Assembly (NCBI GenBank): GCA_050115495.1
Contig: JASFQK010000033.1
Span: forward strand, 1-64,000
Length of the DNA stretch: 64,000 nucleotides
Reading direction: 5' to 3'
Origin: Phycisphaerae bacterium
GTDB lineage: Bacteria > Planctomycetota > Phycisphaerae > UBA1845 > Fen-1342
Part shown: piece after piece, positions 54,247 to 64,000 of the stretch
Numbering within the stretch: position 1 is the first letter of the stretch
How the letters are laid out: each line of letters begins with the position of its first letter
The notes under the pieces: model-generated
The model's input: only the letters and a program-made list of their open reading frames with translations
Told to the model about the DNA's origin: nothing
The model's database searches: none
Position numbers and translations under genes: made by a program

Positions 54247-57200
54247 ATGCCTACCGTATCGAACAACACACGGGTAGTGACCAGGTCGACATCCTCACGC
54301 CGGCGACGCGGAGCGCTTAGCGTCGGCCTCTGGCTGGCCGCGATGCTCCTCGCCGCCTGGCCGGCCAGCGCGCTGGCCCAGACCGACCCGGCGACCTCGA
54401 CGGTCGTGGCCGCCGACGGCGTGGCCGTCGCCAATGGCGTCGACACCGAGCTCATCACGGTGACGTTGCTCGACGCCACGTTGAACCCTGTGGTGGGCCA
54501 CACCGTCTCGCTCGCCGCGATCGGTGCCCCCGCCGGCGTGGTCATCAGTGCTCCCTCCGGGCCCTCCGACGGCAGCGGCGAGGTAACCTTCACCGTTACC
54601 TCGACCGACTCGTACGCCGCCCCCGGCGTCGAGTTTGAGGCCACCGACGACACCGACACCGTCACGATTATCCAGACGGCCTTCGTCGTCTTTGACCCCG
54701 GCCCGACCAGCGCCGCGACCTCGACCGTCGCGGCCGCCGACGGGACGGCGGTTGCCGACGGCATCGAGACCGAGATCATCACCGTCACGCTGCTCGACGC
54801 CAACAGCAACCCGATTCCCGGCCACGCCGTCTCGCTGCTCGCGGACGGGTCGCCGGCGGGTGTGGTCATCGCCGCGGTTGGCGGACAAACCCACTCCGAC
54901 GCCAACGGCCAGGTCTTCTACGCCGTTCGTTCGAGCGTCCCCCACAGCCCCGTCGGCGTTACGTTCCGGGCCTATGACCTGACCGAGCTCGTCGCCATCA
55001 CGCAGACGGCCGACGTCGTCTTCACCACCAACGAGACCGACGCCGGCACTTCCACGGTCAGCGCCAACCCCGCCACCGTGCCGGCCAACGGCACGACCAC
55101 CAGCCTGATCACCGTCGTGCTGAGCAACGCGGGTGGTAATCCCGTGCCGGGTCACGCGGTCTCGCTCGCGGCGATCGGCGCCCCGTCCGGTGTCAGCATC
55201 AGCGCCCCGTCCGGTGTCTCCACCGCCGCCGGCGTCGTCACCTTCACCGTGACTTCCACCGACGTCCACGCCGCCCCCGGCGTCGAGTTCGAGGCCACCG
55301 ACGACACCGACGCAACGACCATCATCGACACGGCCTTCGTCGTCTTCGCGGCCGGCACCACCAGCTCCTCGGCCTCGACCGTTGACGCGGCCGATGGCAC
55401 CGCCCTGGCCAACGGCGTCGAAACCGAACTCATCACCGTCACACTGTTCGACAGCAACGGTCACCGGCTCGCCGGTCACAACGTCTCGCTGGCCGCCGTC
55501 GGCAGTCCCGCCGGCGTCGCCGTCAGCGCCCCCTCGGGCCCCTCGGACGTTGCCGGCCAGGTGACCTTCAGCGTCACCTCGAACGTCGCCCATGGCGCCC
55601 CCGGCGTTGAATTCCGGGCCACCGACACGACTGACGGCGTTGCCATCGCCGACACCGCCTTCGTCGTCTTCACCCCTGGCGCCACCAGCGCCAGTGCCTC
55701 GACCGTTGATCCGGCGGACGGCGCCTGCACCGCCAACGGCTCCGAAACCGAGCTCATCACCGTCACCCTGCGTGACGCCAACAACAACCCCATCGCCGGC
55801 CACAGCGTATCGCTGGCGGCCGTCGGTGCCCCCGCCGGCGTGAACATCAGTGCCCCCTCCGGACCCTCCACTGCCGCTGGCGTGGTCACCTTCACCGTGT
55901 CTTCCAGCGTGGCCTACGCCGCTCCCGGCGTTGAGTTCGAGGCCACCGACGATACGGCGGCGACGACCATTCTCGACACGGCGTTTGTCGTCTTCACCAC
56001 GGGTTCGACGAGTTCGACCACCTCGGCGGTTGCGGCCGCCGACGGCACCGCCATCGCCGACGGCGCCGAGACCGAGCTGATCACCGTCACCCTGCGCGAC
56101 GGCAGCAGCAACCCGGTCGTCGGCCACAACGTCTCGCTGGTCGCCGTCGGCGCCCCGGCGGGTGTGGCGATCAGCGCCCCCTCCGGTGCCTCCGACGGCA
56201 GCGGTCAGGTAACCTTCACTGTCACGTCGACCGTTTCCCACGCCGCCCCTGGCGTTGAGTTCCGCGCCACCGACACGACCGACGGCATCACCATCACGGA
56301 CACGGCCGCCGTCGTCTTCACCGCCGGCCCCACCAGTGCCGCGGCGTCGACCGTCGTTGCGGCGGACGGCGTCTGCGTTGCCAACGGCATCGATACCGAG
56401 CTCATCACCGTCACGCTGCGCGACGCCCTGGGCAACCCCGTCCCCGGCCATAACGTGACGCTCACCGCCCTCGGCGCCCCCGCTGGCGTCGGCATCAGCG
56501 GCCCCTCCGGCATCTCCGGCCCGGACGGCGTCGTCACCTTCACGGTGACCTCGACCGTGGCCCACGGTGCCCCCGGCGTCGAATTCGAAGCCACTGACAC
56601 AACCGCCGGCACGCCGATCACCGATACGGCGCTCGTCGTCTTCGGCTCCGGCTCGACGAGCTCCACGACGTCCACCGTCGCCCCGGCGGATGGCTCGGCT
56701 GTCGCCGACGGCGCGGAGACCGAACTGATCACCGTCACGCTGCGAGACGTGAACAGCAACCCGGTCGTCGGCCACAACGTTGTCCTGGTCGCCGTCGGCG
56801 GCCCGGCGGGTGTGGCGGTCGGCGCCGCTTCCGGCCCCTCCGATGGCGCCGGCATCGTGACCTTCAACGTGACCTCGACCGTCTCCTACGCCGCCCCCGG
56901 CGTTGAGTTCCGCGCTACCGACACGACGGACGGCGTCGCCATCGCCGGCACGGCGTTCGTGATCTTCGTCCCCGGCCCGACCGACGCCACGACCTCGATC
57001 GTCGATCCGGTCGATGGTACCTGCGTCGCCAACGGTAGCGACGGCGAGCTCATCACCGTTACGCTGCTCGACGCACTGGGCAACCCCGTCCCCGGCCACG
57101 ACGTCACACTCGTCGCGGTCGGCGCTCCTGCCGGCGTCACGATCAGCGCCCCCTCCGGCTCCTCGACCACCGCCGGCATCGTCACCTTCACGGTCCGGTC

Positions 57201-60200
57201 GACCGTGTCCTACGGAGCCCCCGGCGTTGAGTTCGAAGCCACCGACACGACCGCCGGCACGACCATCAACGACACGGCGCTCGTGATCTTCGGCTCTGGC
57301 TCGACCAGTTCTACAACGTCCACCGTCGCCCCGGCCGACGGTACCGCCGTCGCTGACGGCGCGGAGACCGAGCTGATCACCGTCACACTGCGCGACGTGA
57401 ACAGCAACCCGATCGCCGGCCACAACGTGTCTCTGGTCGCGGTCGGCGCCCCGGCGGGCGTCGCGATCAGCGCCCCCTCCGGTGCCTCCGACGCCGACGG
57501 TCACGTGACCTTCACGGTCACCTCGACCGTCACGCACGCTGCCCCCGGCGTCGAGTTCCGCGCGACCGACATGACTGACGGTATCACGATCACGGGTACG
57601 GCTCTGGTCGTTTTCACCGCCGGCTCTACCAGTGCGGCCAACTCCACCGTCGACGCGGCCCCTACGCAGGTCGCCGCCGACGGCGTCGCGGCCAGCACCG
57701 TCACCGTCACCCTGCGTGACGGGCTGAACAACCCCGTTCCCAATCACAACGTCTCGCTGGCGGCCACTGGCTCTCCGGCCGGTGTGGTCATCAGCGCCCC
57801 GTCCGGCCCCTCCGATGCCAACGGCGTCGTGACCTTCACCGTTACGTCCACCATGGCGTATGACCCGCCGGGCGTCGAGTTCGTGGCCACGGACGACACC
57901 GTCGCCGTCACCATCACTGACACGGCGGACGTCGCCTTCACGCCGGACGCGACCAGCCCGGTCAACTCCACGGTCGATGCGGCCGATGGCACGGCCACGG
58001 CCGACGGCGCCGACACCGAGCTCATCACCGTCACCCTGCGTGACGCCAACAACAACCCCGTGCCCAACCACGACGTCGCCCTCGAGCTCGTCGGCGGCGG
58101 CACCATCGACTTCGGCGTGCCCTCCGGGCCCTCCGGCGCGAACGGCGTGGTCACCTTCAACGTCTCCACCACCGTCGCCGCCTCGCTCACCATACGGGCC
58201 GTCGACACCACGGCCAGCGTCGTCATCAACGACACGGCCATCGTCGACTTTGTCCCCGGCCCGGCTGACCACTTGAGCTTCGTGCAGCAGCCGACCAACG
58301 TGGCCACGGGCAGCACGATCAATCCGCCCGTTACCGTCGAGATCCTCGACGCCCAGAACAACCGCGTCACCACCGCCGTCGACCTGGTGAACCTCGTCAT
58401 CGAGGCCAACCCTGGCGGTGGCACGCTCGACGGCACGCTGCCGCAAGCCGCGGTTGCCGGTTTGGCTACGTTTGCCGATCTGACCATCGACCACATCGGC
58501 GTTGGCTACACGCTGCGGGCCGAGGCCGTCGGTCTCACGCCGGCCACGTCGGCGCTCTTTGACGTCTCCGCCGGCCGCAACCTGGTCGCCACCAGCGTCG
58601 AGCTGGTGAACGTCGGCGAGCAGCGGCACCTCCAGGCCAACTATTTCGTCGAGGGCGCCGAAATGCTCGGCGAGTTCGACATCACCTATCGCATCGAGCG
58701 TGCCGGCGGCGCCCTGGTCCATGAGGACACGGTGCGCATCACCGCCGCCGACCTGCGCACGCCCGGCTCGCGCAAGGCTGACCTGGGCGACATCCGTCCG
58801 TTCCTCAACGAGGTTATCGCTCAGGGTGACCGCCTGCTTATCGCCCTCGATTCCGCCAACGAGATCGACGAGGGCACGGCCGCCAACGAGACCGACAACG
58901 ACGCCGAGACCTCGCTGACCGTCGACCTGGCCAGCCAGTCGATCGTCGCCGACGTCCAGGGTGTGAACTCCAGCGTGCGCGTCACGTACGCCGTGAACAG
59001 CCCCGCCGACGTGCCGCCCTTCGTCATTCGGGTCGGGATCGACACCAACGGCGACGGCACGATCGACGACACGCTCCGCGACTACAGCACGGCGGCGGAC
59101 GAGATCACGCCGGGCACGCACGTGGCCATCGTCGCACTGCCCACGCAGTTCACCGCCCGCGGCCTCGCCGCCAACGCCAACATCCGCATCGTGGCCCAGT
59201 TGGACGCCACCGGCACCGTGCTCGAATCCGACGCCGGCAACAACCGGGCCAACACGCAGACCACGTACGGCGTCGACCTCGTGCTGACCCGCCTGGTCTT
59301 CCCCGGCACCGCTCTGGGGCAGGACTTCGAGGTCACGCTCGACTACACCGTTAACTCCAACCCGGTCAGTGAGAACTTCACGATCGGTTTCTACGTCGCC
59401 GGCGATTCGCAGATCAGCGCCGCCAGCCTCGGTTCGGCCACGCGCTTCGCGACGCGGACCATCACTACCGCGGCCGACCGCACCGTCGGCCTGCACACGA
59501 AGACGTTCGTGCTGAACATCCCGGCGGATGCCTTCGCCAGCATCAACTTCTTCGTCAAGGCCCGCATCGACGACGGCGCCGGCGTGACCGAGGTGGACGA
59601 GGGCAACAACATCATCGCTTCGCCCAACTCCACGTCCGATCCGAACGCCGATGTCGACGGCGACGGTCTCACCCGGCAGGAGGAGGAATCCGGCTTCCAG
59701 ATTCCGGCGAACCAGATCTACCGCGCCGATGAGCCCCTGAGCAACGCGATCAGCCCGCTCGGTACCCGCACGTTCGATACCGAGCGTGACAGCGACGCCG
59801 ACGGCCTCGACGACCGCCTCGAGCGTAAGACCGGCACCAACCCTGCCGACCGCGACAGCGATGGCGACGGCATCACGGACGGCGTGGAAGACGCCAACCA
59901 GAACGGCATCGTCGACGCCGGCGAGACGAACCCGCGCCACTGGGACTCCGACGAGGACGGCCTCTCCGACCTTGAGGAGTTGACCGGCTTCGACATCACC
60001 CGCTACCCGGCCGGCCTCCAGTCCGGCCGCTTCCAGCGACAGCTCGTCGTGCGCGTTACGACCGATCCCCGAAGGGCGGACACCGACGGTGACGGCCTCA
60101 GCGATTGGGACGAGGTCAACACCTACGCCCGGTCCGCCGACGGTGACGGCGGCGTGCCCAGCATCGGTCTGGACGCGCTCACGGCCCGGATCAGCCGCGC

Positions 60201-61032
60201 CGTGAACAAGCCGGTCTGGGGCATTCGCACCGACCCGACCCTCATCGACACCGACGAGGACGGCCTGCCCGACTCCACCGACCCGGCGCCGGCCATCAAC
60301 CCGGCTCGCTGGGGCTACGACACCCAGCCCGACGGCGGCACGGCGGACGGCCTCTTCAACGACGAGGACATCCAGCGCCTGCGCACCGACCCCCGTCTCA
60401 CGGCCGAACAGCAGGCCACCTACCCGACGACCGTCGAAGCCTTCCAGCGCCTGCTGCTCGACTTCGACCAGGACCGCGACGGGTTCCTCGAAGCCCCCGA
60501 CGCCAACGGCGACGGTTTCCCCGACTTCACCCGCTACAACGAGGCCACCCTCGAGCAGTCTTACCGCATCGACTTCAGCAACAACGGCAGCCTCGATGAC
60601 GGCTTCGACGTCGGCGGTCTCAACCCCGGCAACGCCGACGCCCCCGCCGACACCAGCGGCGCCGCCCGCTACGGCTCCTACCGCGTCACCCACGCCGACG
60701 CCGGTGTGGCCCGCGGCGACGGCACGCTCGATCTCGCCGACGACACGCTCGATGCTCCGGGCGACGCCATCGGTTTCCTGCTCCTGGCCGACAACTGCCC
60801 CAACGAATACAACCCTGGCCAGGAGGACTTCGACGGCGACGGTCTCGGCGACCTGTGCGACGCCGATCTCGATAACGACGGTGTGCCCAACGACATCGAC
60901 TCCGTCCGGCAGACGCCGCTGGCCACGCCGGTCTGCGGTCTCGGCGTTGTTCAGGCCATGATGCTCAGCCTGGCCGGTCTCATGGGCCTGCGCCTCGGCG
61001 GCGGCGCGCGTCGGCGACGCTCGGCCTGCTAG
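54247..61032 (+). CDS. 2261-aa surface adhesin: 12 invasin-type Ig (Big_1) repeats, CARDB-like domains, Ca-binding DxDxDG/TSP3 repeats and a C-terminal CGxG-TM-basic anchor
   Basis: Signal peptide, repeated STV.AADG.A.A[ND]G..TELITVTL.D..NP.GH.V.L units, E.DE.NN motifs, DSDGDG repeats and PVCGLG-hydrophobic-RRRR. Confidence 0.9.
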   Translation: MPTVSNNTRVVTRSTSSRRRRGALSVGLWLAAMLLAAWPASALAQTDPATSTVVAADGVAVANGVDTELITVTLLDATLNPVVGHTVSLAAIGAPAGVVISAPSGPSDGSGEVTFTVTSTDSYAAPGVEFEATDDTDTVTIIQTAFVVFDPGPTSAATSTVAAADGTAVADGIETEIITVTLLDANSNPIPGHAVSLLADGSPAGVVIAAVGGQTHSDANGQVFYAVRSSVPHSPVGVTFRAYDLTELVAITQTADVVFTTNETDAGTSTVSANPATVPANGTTTSLITVVLSNAGGNPVPGHAVSLAAIGAPSGVSISAPSGVSTAAGVVTFTVTSTDVHAAPGVEFEATDDTDATTIIDTAFVVFAAGTTSSSASTVDAADGTALANGVETELITVTLFDSNGHRLAGHNVSLAAVGSPAGVAVSAPSGPSDVAGQVTFSVTSNVAHGAPGVEFRATDTTDGVAIADTAFVVFTPGATSASASTVDPADGACTANGSETELITVTLRDANNNPIAGHSVSLAAVGAPAGVNISAPSGPSTAAGVVTFTVSSSVAYAAPGVEFEATDDTAATTILDTAFVVFTTGSTSSTTSAVAAADGTAIADGAETELITVTLRDGSSNPVVGHNVSLVAVGAPAGVAISAPSGASDGSGQVTFTVTSTVSHAAPGVEFRATDTTDGITITDTAAVVFTAGPTSAAASTVVAADGVCVANGIDTELITVTLRDALGNPVPGHNVTLTALGAPAGVGISGPSGISGPDGVVTFTVTSTVAHGAPGVEFEATDTTAGTPITDTALVVFGSGSTSSTTSTVAPADGSAVADGAETELITVTLRDVNSNPVVGHNVVLVAVGGPAGVAVGAASGPSDGAGIVTFNVTSTVSYAAPGVEFRATDTTDGVAIAGTAFVIFVPGPTDATTSIVDPVDGTCVANGSDGELITVTLLDALGNPVPGHDVTLVAVGAPAGVTISAPSGSSTTAGIVTFTVRSTVSYGAPGVEFEATDTTAGTTINDTALVIFGSGSTSSTTSTVAPADGTAVADGAETELITVTLRDVNSNPIAGHNVSLVAVGAPAGVAISAPSGASDADGHVTFTVTSTVTHAAPGVEFRATDMTDGITITGTALVVFTAGSTSAANSTVDAAPTQVAADGVAASTVTVTLRDGLNNPVPNHNVSLAATGSPAGVVISAPSGPSDANGVVTFTVTSTMAYDPPGVEFVATDDTVAVTITDTADVAFTPDATSPVNSTVDAADGTATADGADTELITVTLRDANNNPVPNHDVALELVGGGTIDFGVPSGPSGANGVVTFNVSTTVAASLTIRAVDTTASVVINDTAIVDFVPGPADHLSFVQQPTNVATGSTINPPVTVEILDAQNNRVTTAVDLVNLVIEANPGGGTLDGTLPQAAVAGLATFADLTIDHIGVGYTLRAEAVGLTPATSALFDVSAGRNLVATSVELVNVGEQRHLQANYFVEGAEMLGEFDITYRIERAGGALVHEDTVRITAADLRTPGSRKADLGDIRPFLNEVIAQGDRLLIALDSANEIDEGTAANETDNDAETSLTVDLASQSIVADVQGVNSSVRVTYAVNSPADVPPFVIRVGIDTNGDGTIDDTLRDYSTAADEITPGTHVAIVALPTQFTARGLAANANIRIVAQLDATGTVLESDAGNNRANTQTTYGVDLVLTRLVFPGTALGQDFEVTLDYTVNSNPVSENFTIGFYVAGDSQISAASLGSATRFATRTITTAADRTVGLHTKTFVLNIPADAFASINFFVKARIDDGAGVTEVDEGNNIIASPNSTSDPNADVDGDGLTRQEEESGFQIPANQIYRADEPLSNAISPLGTRTFDTERDSDADGLDDRLERKTGTNPADRDSDGDGITDGVEDANQNGIVDAGETNPRHWDSDEDGLSDLEELTGFDITRYPAGLQSGRFQRQLVVRVTTDPRRADTDGDGLSDWDEVNTYARSADGDGGVPSIGLDALTARISRAVNKPVWGIRTDPTLIDTDEDGLPDSTDPAPAINPARWGYDTQPDGGTADGLFNDEDIQRLRTDPRLTAEQQATYPTTVEAFQRLLLDFDQDRDGFLEAPDANGDGFPDFTRYNEATLEQSYRIDFSNNGSLDDGFDVGGLNPGNADAPADTSGAARYGSYRVTHADAGVARGDGTLDLADDTLDAPGDAIGFLLLADNCPNEYNPGQEDFDGDGLGDLCDADLDNDGVPNDIDSVRQTPLATPVCGLGVVQAMMLSLAGLMGLRLGGGARRRRSAC

Positions 61033-61062: not shown

Positions 61063-61094
61063 AGCGGCGGCCGAACCAACGTTCGGCCGCCGCT
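61063..61094. terminator. Intrinsic terminator between convergent genes
   Basis: Perfect 14-bp stem AGCGGCGGCCGAAC-CAAC-GTTCGGCCGCCGCT, followed by GTTTTAT on the minus strand. Confidence 0.8.
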
Positions 61095-61132: not shown

Positions 61133-62434
61133 TTACGGCGCCGGCTGCGTCGTCGCCGGCGGCTTGGGCCGCGCCCTGTGCGGCGCGCGCACCACCGGGA
61201 TGCGCAGCGGTTTGTTGCCGTCGTTCTCCGTTCGCACGATCACGAAGGTTGATCCCGGCGGCTCGTAGTCTGCGGGGACCGTCAGCGTGATCACCGGTCG
61301 CGGCTCTGCATCGTAGCGCACCTTGACCGTCGGGTCCGTGCACGACACGTTCACGACCTTGTCTTCCTGGCCCGGTGCCCACGCCAGCCGCACGGCGAAG
61401 TCCTGCTCGGCCGGCAGATTGGCCGACAGACCGAAGCGCGGCGGCACCGATCGCAGCCGCGGTGTCAACTGCCCGATCACGCGGATTCGCTCTTCCGGCG
61501 ACTCCGGCACACCTGTCTTCACCACCAGCGTCTCACGCAGGTACTTCTTCGGCCAGGGCGGTGTGAACGTCACTTGGAGCTCGTACCGCTCTCCCTTCTC
61601 GACCTCGCGCACCTCCACCGTCAATTGCGGGTTCTTCGGCGTTTCCACCACCGGCGCGATCGGTCCGCCGTCCCCGCGGGTCAGCCTCAGCTTGCGCGTG
61701 ATGGCGGGCGTGCTCGCCGTGACCAACCCGAAGTTCACGAGCGACGGACTGAGGCGCAGCGGCTCGTACACGAAACCCTTGCACACCAGCCGCAACTGTG
61801 CCTGCTGGGCGTCGTTCGTCTCAACGCGGACAGTCTTCTCGAACTTGCCCCGCCGAGCCGTCGTCGGGACACTCACCTTGACTTCTTCTGCCTGACCCGG
61901 AGCGATGGTACGGTCCAACTGACCGTGGATGGTGAGCCCTCACGGCTTCAGCAGGTGGATGTCCAGGGCGCCTTGCCCCTCGTTGCGCACCGAGAAAACG
62001 AACTCGATGCTTGGGCCCCGCCAGCAGGCCGCCTTCTCCAGCTCCGGCTTGTCACACGTCACTTTCGGCTGCGGCTGATCCGCTGGCGGGGGGATCAACC
62101 GGCGATTGCTGGTATCCCCGCAGCCCTTCGCCCCCGCCGGCTGCGTGGCCGGCTGCGGTGTGGCGGGTTTCTTCTCCTGTGACTTATCGGCCCCTTCCTT
62201 CTTCTTCGCCTCGTGGGCTTGGCGGACCGCCTCCTCGATCATGCGGATCAGCTCGGCGTCCGATTGCTGGGTCGGCTGGCTGGCCGGGGGCTCGGTTACT
62301 TCCTGCGGAACCGGGCCAGCGCCCGCCCGCGGGACCACCGCCACACCCAACGCGATCGCCAGCACCAGCGCCCCGCCCGCAATCCACGGGCCCGGTCGCC
62401 TGCCGTTTCGCCCCTTCGCCCTAATTCCCTTCAT
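61133..62434 (-). CDS. Exported DUF1573-like Ig-domain protein, paralog B, with in-frame UGA at 61940-61942 (candidate selenoprotein)
   Basis: GGAG RBS, ATG 62434 and signal peptide. FSVRNEGQGALDIHLLKP-UGA-GLTIHGQLDRTIAPGQAEEVKV continues in frame to TAA at 61133. Confidence 0.75.
61910..61926 (-). promoter_or_regulatory. Candidate bacterial SECIS hairpin (paralog B)
   Basis: ACGGUC-AGUUG-GACCGU starting 13 nt after the UGA. Confidence 0.6.
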
Positions 62435-62622
62435 TGACTCCGTCCTGGGTAGGCCCACTCGCCGACCAACGTACGCCTGCCGGTTCCCGACCGACAACAG
62501 CCGGCTATTCTATCGACCACTTGGTTATTCACCAAAACCCCCCGGGCGCACGCCAAATAGAACCGCCGCCGGCAGAAGCCGGCGGCGGTCTGATAGTCGT
62601 CATTGCGATGCGCCCGGTCGCG

Positions 62623-64000
62623 CTACGGCGCGGGCTGCGTGGTCGGCGGTTGCGCCCTGACCCGCGACGGCGGCTTGGTCACCCGCGGCGCGGCCTGCCT
62701 GGCAGGCTGCCCCCGTACCGGCGGCGTCCCGGCCCCAGCTCCAGCCGCCGGCCGGATTCCTCGTACCGGCTGCCGCACGACCGGAATCCGCAGGTTCGGC
62801 GCTTCCGTATCGTCCGTCATCACGGTGACCGCCACCACGCCCGTGGGCGAGTAATCCGCCGGGATGCTCACCACAACGTACGGTTTTCCGTCACGTTCCT
62901 CGTACCGTCCCGTCAGAGCCGTGTCCGAGCACACCACCTTCAGGACCTTGCCCGGGTTCGATCCGGCCCACATCAACTGCACCGGCACTTCGAGCGCATC
63001 CGGCAACACGGCCGGCACACTCAGCCGCGGCGGATTCGCCCTCAACCGCGGCGGCGTCCGGCCCAGCACCGAAATCGTCTCGATCGGGCTTTCGGTCACG
63101 CCTGTCTTGAGCGACACCGTCCCGCGGAAACTGCTCGACGGCAATGGCGGCGTCAGCGTCACGTCCAGCTCGTATCGCTCGCCGGGCTCGACTTCCCGAA
63201 GCTGCGCCGACATCTGCCGCTCGGCGATCGGCATGAGCTCCAGGGCCAGCGGCCCGCCGTCACCACGCTTGATCTGCAGCGTCTTCGTCTGCGGTCCGCC
63301 TTCCCGGTTGAACGCGTTGAAGTTCACGATGCGCAGGTTCGTCGTGAACGGAACCAGCGCCTTGCCCTTGCACGATAGTGCCACACTGCGGTTCTGCGGG
63401 TCATTCGTCTGTACGCGGATGTCCTTGCTGAAGGCACCGGACCGCGACCGCGTGCTGATGCTTACCTTCACTTCTTCCGTTGCGCCCGGCGCGATAGAAC
63501 GGTCAGCCTGACCGTCGATCTTGACGCCTCACCCTCCCTTGGCGCGGATATTCAGCACGCCCTCTCCCTCGTTCTTGATCTTGAATACGAACTCCGCCAT
63601 CGCCCCGCCCCACGTCGGCGCCGCCTCCACGAGCGGTTGCTCGCAGACGTACTTCGGTTGCGGCTGATCCGCCGCCGGCGGCGTCAGATCCAGCTTCCCC
63701 GTCGCTCCGCCACAGCCCGACGCCGGCTTCGCCGCCTGCGGCGCTTTCTGAGTCGGAGTCTGCGGGTTGGCGGGTGCCGGTCTCACCGGACGCACCACGG
63801 GCGGAGCCGTCTTCGGCGGCGCCGTGGTTCCCTCCTGCTGCGCCTGACGGACCAGCTCCTCGATCTGCCGCGTCAACTCCTCTGCCGTCGGGTTGTCGCC
63901 ACCGGCCGGCTGCGATGCCGGGGGCTGTGCGCTGCTCACCGCTTGCCCGGCCCCATCACCAGCCCAGGCAACCTCCGCCCCCAGTAACGTGACTACCAGT
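62623..64000 (-). CDS. Exported DUF1573-like Ig-domain protein, paralog A (5' end outside the window), with in-frame UGA at 63529-63531 (candidate selenoprotein)
   Basis: Frame is open from the window edge (LVVTLLGAEVAWA, signal-like). FKIKNEGEGVLNIRAKGG-UGA-GVKIDGQADRSIAPGATEEVKV continues in frame to TAG at 62623. Confidence 0.75.
63499..63515 (-). promoter_or_regulatory. Candidate bacterial SECIS hairpin (paralog A)
   Basis: ACGGUC-AGGCU-GACCGU starting 13 nt after the UGA. Confidence 0.6.

Follow-up and report, generated by a model that had tools for sequence, protein, structure and literature searches.

The window, i.e. the whole stretch of 64,000 nt that was analysed (positions 1 to 64,000 of contig JASFQK010000033.1, Phycisphaerae bacterium assembly GCA_050115495.1), carries near its right-hand end two tandem genes on the reverse strand (Table 1). 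The source genome gave 11 weak PF07596 matches, which together with motif usage suggest a planctomycete, probably of the Phycisphaerae. In an earlier note on this DNA, four open reading frame pieces were read as two frames, each broken once by TGA, and the pair was proposed as candidate unannotated secreted selenoproteins. We found both TGA triplets where they had been placed, and when TGA was translated as selenocysteine (Sec) the frames were uninterrupted, with the TAG and TAA named there as their true stops. Both proteins end with TTQPAP, as had been reported; this ending was not a feature of the family, and the tails varied among orthologues. The probable ATG start of gene 1 was located at C33:64071, 71 bases past the window edge. 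In two relatives from the same genus a single copy adjoined ilvC, so the tandem pair probably arose by local duplication; in the tree, the gene 2 branch was longer than the gene 1 branch. Convergent with gene 2, a gene at 54247-61032 (+) encodes an exported protein of 2261 aa, probably a surface protein; repeats of about 100 aa occur in it many times in tandem, and its C-terminal part is acidic and rich in D-x-D-x-D-G.

Table 1. Features of the two split genes and their flanks, in positions of the window.
Feature	Positions	Strand	Remark
Gene 1, predicted exported three-Ig-domain DUF1573 selenoprotein, 482 aa	62623..64000	(-)	ends TAG
Gene 1 signal peptide, part within the window	63961..64000	(-)	basic N-region, hydrophobic core, A-x-A end; by eye and hydropathy
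Linker Cys of gene 1, within G-C-G and 61 residues N-terminal to Sec	63712..63714	(-)	candidate partner thiol
Gene 1 DUF1573 (PapD/ASH-like Ig) match spanning the UGA	63361..63603	(-)
Gene 1 in-frame UGA, predicted Sec181	63529..63531	(-)	context G-G-U-G-V
Gene 1 SECIS-type hairpin	63499..63515	(-)	6-bp stem, 5-nt loop, G at loop position 2
Terminator-like hairpin 3' of gene 1	62563..62575	(-)	consensus match only
Gene 2, predicted paralogous exported DUF1573 selenoprotein, 433 aa	61133..62434	(-)	ATG 62434, ends TAA
Gene 2 signal peptide, 39 aa	62318..62434	(-)	A-x-A end; by eye and hydropathy
Linker Cys of gene 2, within G-C-G and 60 residues N-terminal to Sec	62120..62122	(-)	candidate partner thiol
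Gene 2 DUF1573 match spanning the UGA	61769..62020	(-)
Gene 2 in-frame UGA, predicted Sec165	61940..61942	(-)	context K-P-U-G-L
Gene 2 SECIS-type hairpin	61910..61926	(-)	stem and register as in gene 1
14-bp terminator-like hairpin 3' of gene 2	61063..61094	(-)	consensus match only

Neither TGA is an assembly error, since other contigs span them without differences: the gene 1 TGA is covered by a contig from an RNA run, and that of gene 2 by a DNA contig from another study. The RNA contigs cover gene 1 alone and are silent on expression level and strand; the lack of one over gene 2 says nothing of whether that gene is expressed. The absence of a genome-wide code change, argued previously, was borne out, as TGA terminates 479 of 1185 long coding-like frames in the source genome. 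The tRNA-Trp of this genome has the ordinary CCA anticodon. After ordinary TGA stops the codon bias was lost (mean GC3 minus GC2 of -0.04); past the two in-frame TGAs it persisted (0.17 each, with 0.45-0.48 before). In the collection searched, NCBI, JGI and Logan records contain the downstream halves as separate proteins of 282 aa and 261/247 aa. For this collection, the description of the genes as unannotated holds, but DUF1573 selenoproteins as such had already been catalogued, as the accessible parts of three papers indicate (PMC9312934, PMC13188914, PMC1976440), and the novelty claimed earlier was for this reason overrated.

Each protein begins with a signal peptide and a disordered linker rich in Pro and Ala; these are followed by three beta-sandwich domains and a tail of low complexity. 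A search of the translation through the UGA matched DUF1573 (PF07610) with 43.5 and 47.9 bits, in comparison to the Pfam gathering cut-off of 26.1, which agrees with the family proposed in the earlier note. The UGA had also been placed at the C-G-C motif of this domain; we can specify that it aligns with the first Cys, and that neither protein has the second one. Two AlphaFold models had mean pLDDT values of 93.2 and 92.3, and the alignment together with the confident model placed the Sec site in an exposed loop that follows the third main strand of the first domain. The best structural matches were PapD-like/ASH Ig domains (HYDIN, CEP192, VesB) and the P. gingivalis protein 2QSV, with Z 10.9, rmsd 3.4 and 104 aligned residues for the first domain against HYDIN 2e6j and Z 11.1 against 2qsv. 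These matches share the fold only, showing no function, and none of them points to a Sec or redox site. We know of no function for DUF1573. Crude scans indicated a hydrophobic N-terminal segment in 79 of 94 relatives and a lipobox-like site in 31 of 94; both window proteins look as if they are cleaved by signal peptidase I. Among the same number of relatives, both Cys of a pair at -38 and +53 (relative to Sec) were present in 53, one in 32 and neither in 9, so a fixed disulfide between them is only partly supported. The source genome also has three DUF1573 paralogues of the C-G-C type (G000:C1:82880-84975 and C24:11666-12613), two of them in tandem.

To examine the UGA column, we collected homologous domains in two samples. 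The family sample covered 72 genomes, with 150 of 249 matches listed, and comprised 30 loci, a further 40 regions picked among the top-listed matches, and five loci of the source genome itself; it gave 81 distinct domains, of which 48 had TGA, 32 Cys and one Asp in the column. The order sample came from a profile search of 251 genomes, with 150 of 595 matches listed, of which the 60 top regions not belonging to the family were used; among the 62 domains obtained from them, 45 had TGA and 17 C-G-C. Altogether, the column held TGA in 93, Cys in 49 and Asp in one of 143 domains, and never Trp, as expected from the earlier proposal; this sample is biased to best hits, since the regions were drawn from the top of the match lists. 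Frames were split at TAA and TAG when extracted, and the search tables read through all stops; among the matches listed, the internal stops were TGA only, except for one TAG outside the column. The identity was alike on the two sides of the UGA (0.38 vs 0.40). Six of the 93 TGA genes encode U-G-C, and the other 87, which we refer to as lone-Sec genes, have no Cys at +2; in this best-hit sample the latter were distributed over 74 genomes, 40 genera and five families of one order. Of 400 other genomes of the phylum that were searched, a single one had a match at E < 1e-40; its scores were weak and internal stops were absent. Among the genomes searched, the lone-Sec subfamily was not found outside the order.

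Downstream of the UGA, both genes have a hairpin whose stem begins sixteen bases from the UGA start and whose loop lies 19 nt after the UGA. At least five of the six pairs were formed in 90 of the 93 TGA genes in comparison to two of the 49 Cys genes, and six Watson-Crick pairs in 77 of 93 vs none of 49. Of 135,877 TGA triplets genome-wide, 33 had this stem together with the loop G. For the 48 family genes, pairing was seen in 94.6% of the cells, whereas slid controls gave 11-47%, and two-sided changes numbered 31 vs 9.1+/-2.4 in shuffles, a test that is inflated by kinship. At the outer pair, each of the four possible Watson-Crick combinations occurs. The 3' base of this pair falls on the third, synonymous position of an Arg codon and is complementary to the opposite base in 77 of 90 cases. 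The 45 genes from outside the family, which were fetched after the stem had been defined, keep the hairpin with new pair types. Folded alone, each hairpin was no better than its shuffles (z from -1.0 to +1.4, not significant). According to the accessible part of a 2026 catalogue, the consensus bacterial SECIS has a loop of 3-9 nt, a stem of 4-16 bp, a G in the first two loop positions, a distance of 16-37 nt from UGA to loop, and an energy limit of -7.5 kcal/mol (PMC13188914). The window hairpins fit this consensus in loop length, stem length, G and spacing, and their energies over 42 nt were -13.4 and -10.1 kcal/mol; however, they lack a conserved lower stem. Three relatives (L077, L079 and L152) retain the hairpin through a register shift or a one-codon insertion, away from the usual positions. 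In the source genome, searches with a regular expression and an RNA model, the latter scoring 150 of about 7,949 candidates, indicated no other convincing gene with the hairpin.

The search for sel genes suggested previously was successful: selA, selB, selC (tRNA-Sec) and selD were all present in the 92% complete genome, above curated cut-offs. The selD gene (G000:C36:5956-6891, L018) has its own in-frame TGA, and the hairpin after it is unlike the DUF1573 hairpin in sequence. ARAGORN also proposed a second tRNA with a UCA anticodon (G000:C3:95769-95868), which was poorly paired and without a Rfam tRNA-Sec match, and is probably false. Across the family, selA was found in 68 and selB in 64 of 72 genomes. 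A TGA copy of the lone-Sec subfamily is present in 38 family genomes; every one of these has selA or selB, and 32 have both; this correlation is uninformative, since selA and selB occur nearly everywhere in the family. In roughly half of the family genomes, the SelA match falls in two pieces within one open frame (~1-183 and 192-366), which suggests an insertion.

The complete machinery, a column occupied by TGA or Cys in all but one of the 143 domains and a covarying hairpin confined to TGA genes support the programmed Sec insertion put forward in the earlier note, and, judged from these comparative data, the UGA of both genes is almost certainly decoded as Sec through a SelB-type hairpin. 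It is very improbable that the UGA stands for Cys or Trp or is passed by leaky readthrough, or that the genes are split or dead. The public gene calls that split both genes, the second UCA-anticodon tRNA on C3 and the restriction of RNA contigs to gene 1 could be read in this way, but the tRNA is the poorly paired one described above, no domain has Trp in the column, and TGA is the sole internal stop among the matches listed, bar the TAG off-column. Moreover, codon and hairpin are kept together in 87 genes of 40 genera, and the identity is alike before and after the UGA.

DUF1573 selenoproteins with the motif U-G-C are included in catalogues of 2022 and 2026 (PMC9312934, PMC13188914, in their accessible parts), and the prediction goes back to a 2007 study of the Olavius symbionts, in which the accessible text names OS_HP2 (PMC1976440). 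From the tables of the reviews, as far as these are accessible, and an NCBIfam match we infer that OS_HP2 is the DUF1573 entry of the catalogues. The window proteins resemble OS_HP2 in the domain, in Sec at the first Cys of C-G-C, in export and in a SECIS inside the coding sequence. However, OS_HP2 has U-G-C, whereas the window proteins have U-G-V and U-G-L, with no Cys at +2; the lone-Sec proteins also differ in forming a separate clade with a conserved remote Cys, and in that their Cys paralogues are of the Cys-Cys type. In its accessible part, the 2026 catalogue gives U-G-C as the sole motif for DUF1573 and treats differing Sec motifs as separate subfamilies (PMC13188914). We found no description of the lone-Sec variant in the literature searched, where supplements may list such sequences. 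On the NCBIfam model NF041425 (cut-off 100), the window proteins scored 46.6 and 51.7 bits and six orthologues 41-62 bits. The six U-G-C relatives, all from the same family (L085-L090; G048, G049, G053 and G058) and with the identical SECIS hairpin, scored 88-96 bits, so they would escape annotation just below the cut-off. The earlier note contained neither the SECIS nor the missing vicinal Cys, the latter being the distinguishing feature here.

The pattern of cysteines described below was noticed only once the data had been inspected. Of the 40 lone-Sec proteins that were evaluable in the family (two further ones were not), 38 have a linker Cys at -58 to -63, mostly as G-C-G, and Cys is otherwise rare in the low-complexity parts (8 of 3523 tail residues). 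Across the order, with 84 evaluable lone-Sec proteins, the linker Cys was present in 59 (57 with a clean motif) and a Cys at +26 in 14; none had both and 11 had neither. By strand topology, position +26 should belong to the loop that follows, at the sandwich end that also bears the Sec loop. A similar motif lies further upstream in two of the 11 proteins with neither Cys; two others have a lipobox Cys only and one has a Cys at +32, and the remaining six have no obvious substitute. The linker Cys was left unplaced by AlphaFold (pLDDT < 50 for residues 7-14 and 1-9 in two models).

Seven close paralogues have Cys in place of Sec, and all seven have gained a Cys at -1 and lost the linker Cys; in six of them the hairpin core is lost as well. 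The linker Cys was kept in none of the seven Cys-Cys and none of the six U-G-C forms. Three more distant Cys forms have no Cys at -1. The Cys-Cys forms come from five genomes, all with sel genes, and in four of these the Sec copy is kept. A tree of 285 columns, with the trait columns masked, required five origins of Cys-Cys and rejected a single one (p-AU 2.7e-49); trees from shorter alignments forced only two. This suggests that the Cys-Cys pair arose repeatedly, up to five times. The +26 Cys group may be one event, as a single origin was not rejected. Independent contrasts on well-supported branches agreed in four of four cases (p = 0.125), a number too small for significance. Two tandem pairs of a Sec gene and its Cys-Cys paralogue, L105 / L059 (G003:C202) and L045 / L067 (G029:C62), can serve as natural controls; in G029, an N gap lies upstream of the Sec copy.

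These observations would be accommodated by the following mechanism. SelB bound to the in-frame hairpin would deliver Sec-tRNA to the UGA, yielding a full-length exported selenoprotein. The Sec loop of the DUF1573 domain would need a second thiol, and the G-C-G Cys on the flexible linker, ~60 residues upstream, could swing in and form a reversible selenenyl-sulfide with Sec; through this reversible bond the protein would serve the cell envelope as a thiol-selenol redox site. A working analogy is provided by mammalian MsrB1, in which, according to the accessible part of the report, Sec95 is paired with the resolving Cys4 on a flexible N-terminus, the pairing having been tested experimentally and the substrate being known (PMC1278935). 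The window proteins share with it the Sec and a distant Cys on a flexible N-terminal segment, but they belong to an unrelated family, and their pairing is a proposed one. We infer that the DUF1573 loop is a two-chalcogen site with the linker Cys as partner, comparable to Cys4 of MsrB1. The whole statement, that these selenoproteins are exported, have three Ig domains and cycle between redox states through pairing of Sec with a remote linker Cys, seems to us somewhat probable.

Two other explanations have to be weighed against redox cycling, which we rank first. Instead of forming a redox pair, Sec and its partner Cys could be an envelope binding site for a soft metal or metalloid (Cu, Hg or As), and a requirement for two thiols and loops of the Cys-Cys or C-x-C type suit metal binding equally well. 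However, none of the 36 neighbour proteins scanned at 20 loci was a copper- or other metal-handling protein, and no His or Met is conserved among the invariant or nearly invariant columns, so that we regard this explanation, ranked second, as unlikely. Ranked third, and less likely still, is a linker Cys with an unrelated role, such as an inter-chain disulfide or acylation, which was lost by general divergence while Sec acts alone or with an outside partner. The 11 of 84 proteins without either candidate partner, the AlphaFold models without docking of the linker and the non-significant contrasts would all be consistent with it, and by Ig topology the linker would enter at the pole opposite to the Sec loop. 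Against it, all 21 proteins that gained a Cys beside or close to the Sec site (seven Cys-Cys and 14 at +26) have lost the linker Cys, these being the product of up to six events, and the spacing of the linker Cys is held at -58 to -63 in the family.

The redox reading can be extended to the subfamily as a whole: an uncatalogued, order-wide subfamily of exported Ig-fold selenoproteins whose Sec lacks a vicinal Cys and is resolved by a tether Cys ~60 residues off. In evolution, this arrangement would have been replaced repeatedly, either by a Cys of a nearby loop or by a Sec-free Cys-Cys pair in paralogues from Sec-competent genomes. In this full form, we would expect the statement to hold or to fail about equally. 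If it is true, the partner swaps are natural evidence for the DUF1573 loop as a two-chalcogen active site. The Cys-Cys forms also exemplify how the loss of Sec is made up for by a newly gained vicinal Cys where the genome can still make Sec. The Sec call alone is an annotation fix, by which two split genes are mended and at least 87 further ones in a single bacterial order are flagged; what would be new to a specialist are the partner-cysteine swaps. They make the function of DUF1573 testable with natural controls, e.g. the G003 gene with Sec and tether beside its Cys-Cys sister.

Across 20 loci, the gene neighbourhoods had no shared operon and no conserved redox neighbours. The recurring neighbours were housekeeping genes (ilvC, ychF, riboflavin synthase), which differed between lineages. 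The 36 neighbour proteins scanned included one Fe-S protein and one DsbD-like protein. The latter is encoded by a DsbD-like thiol:disulfide interchange gene (L206:8158-10632, G208), located directly 3' of the selenoprotein gene at one of the 20 loci.
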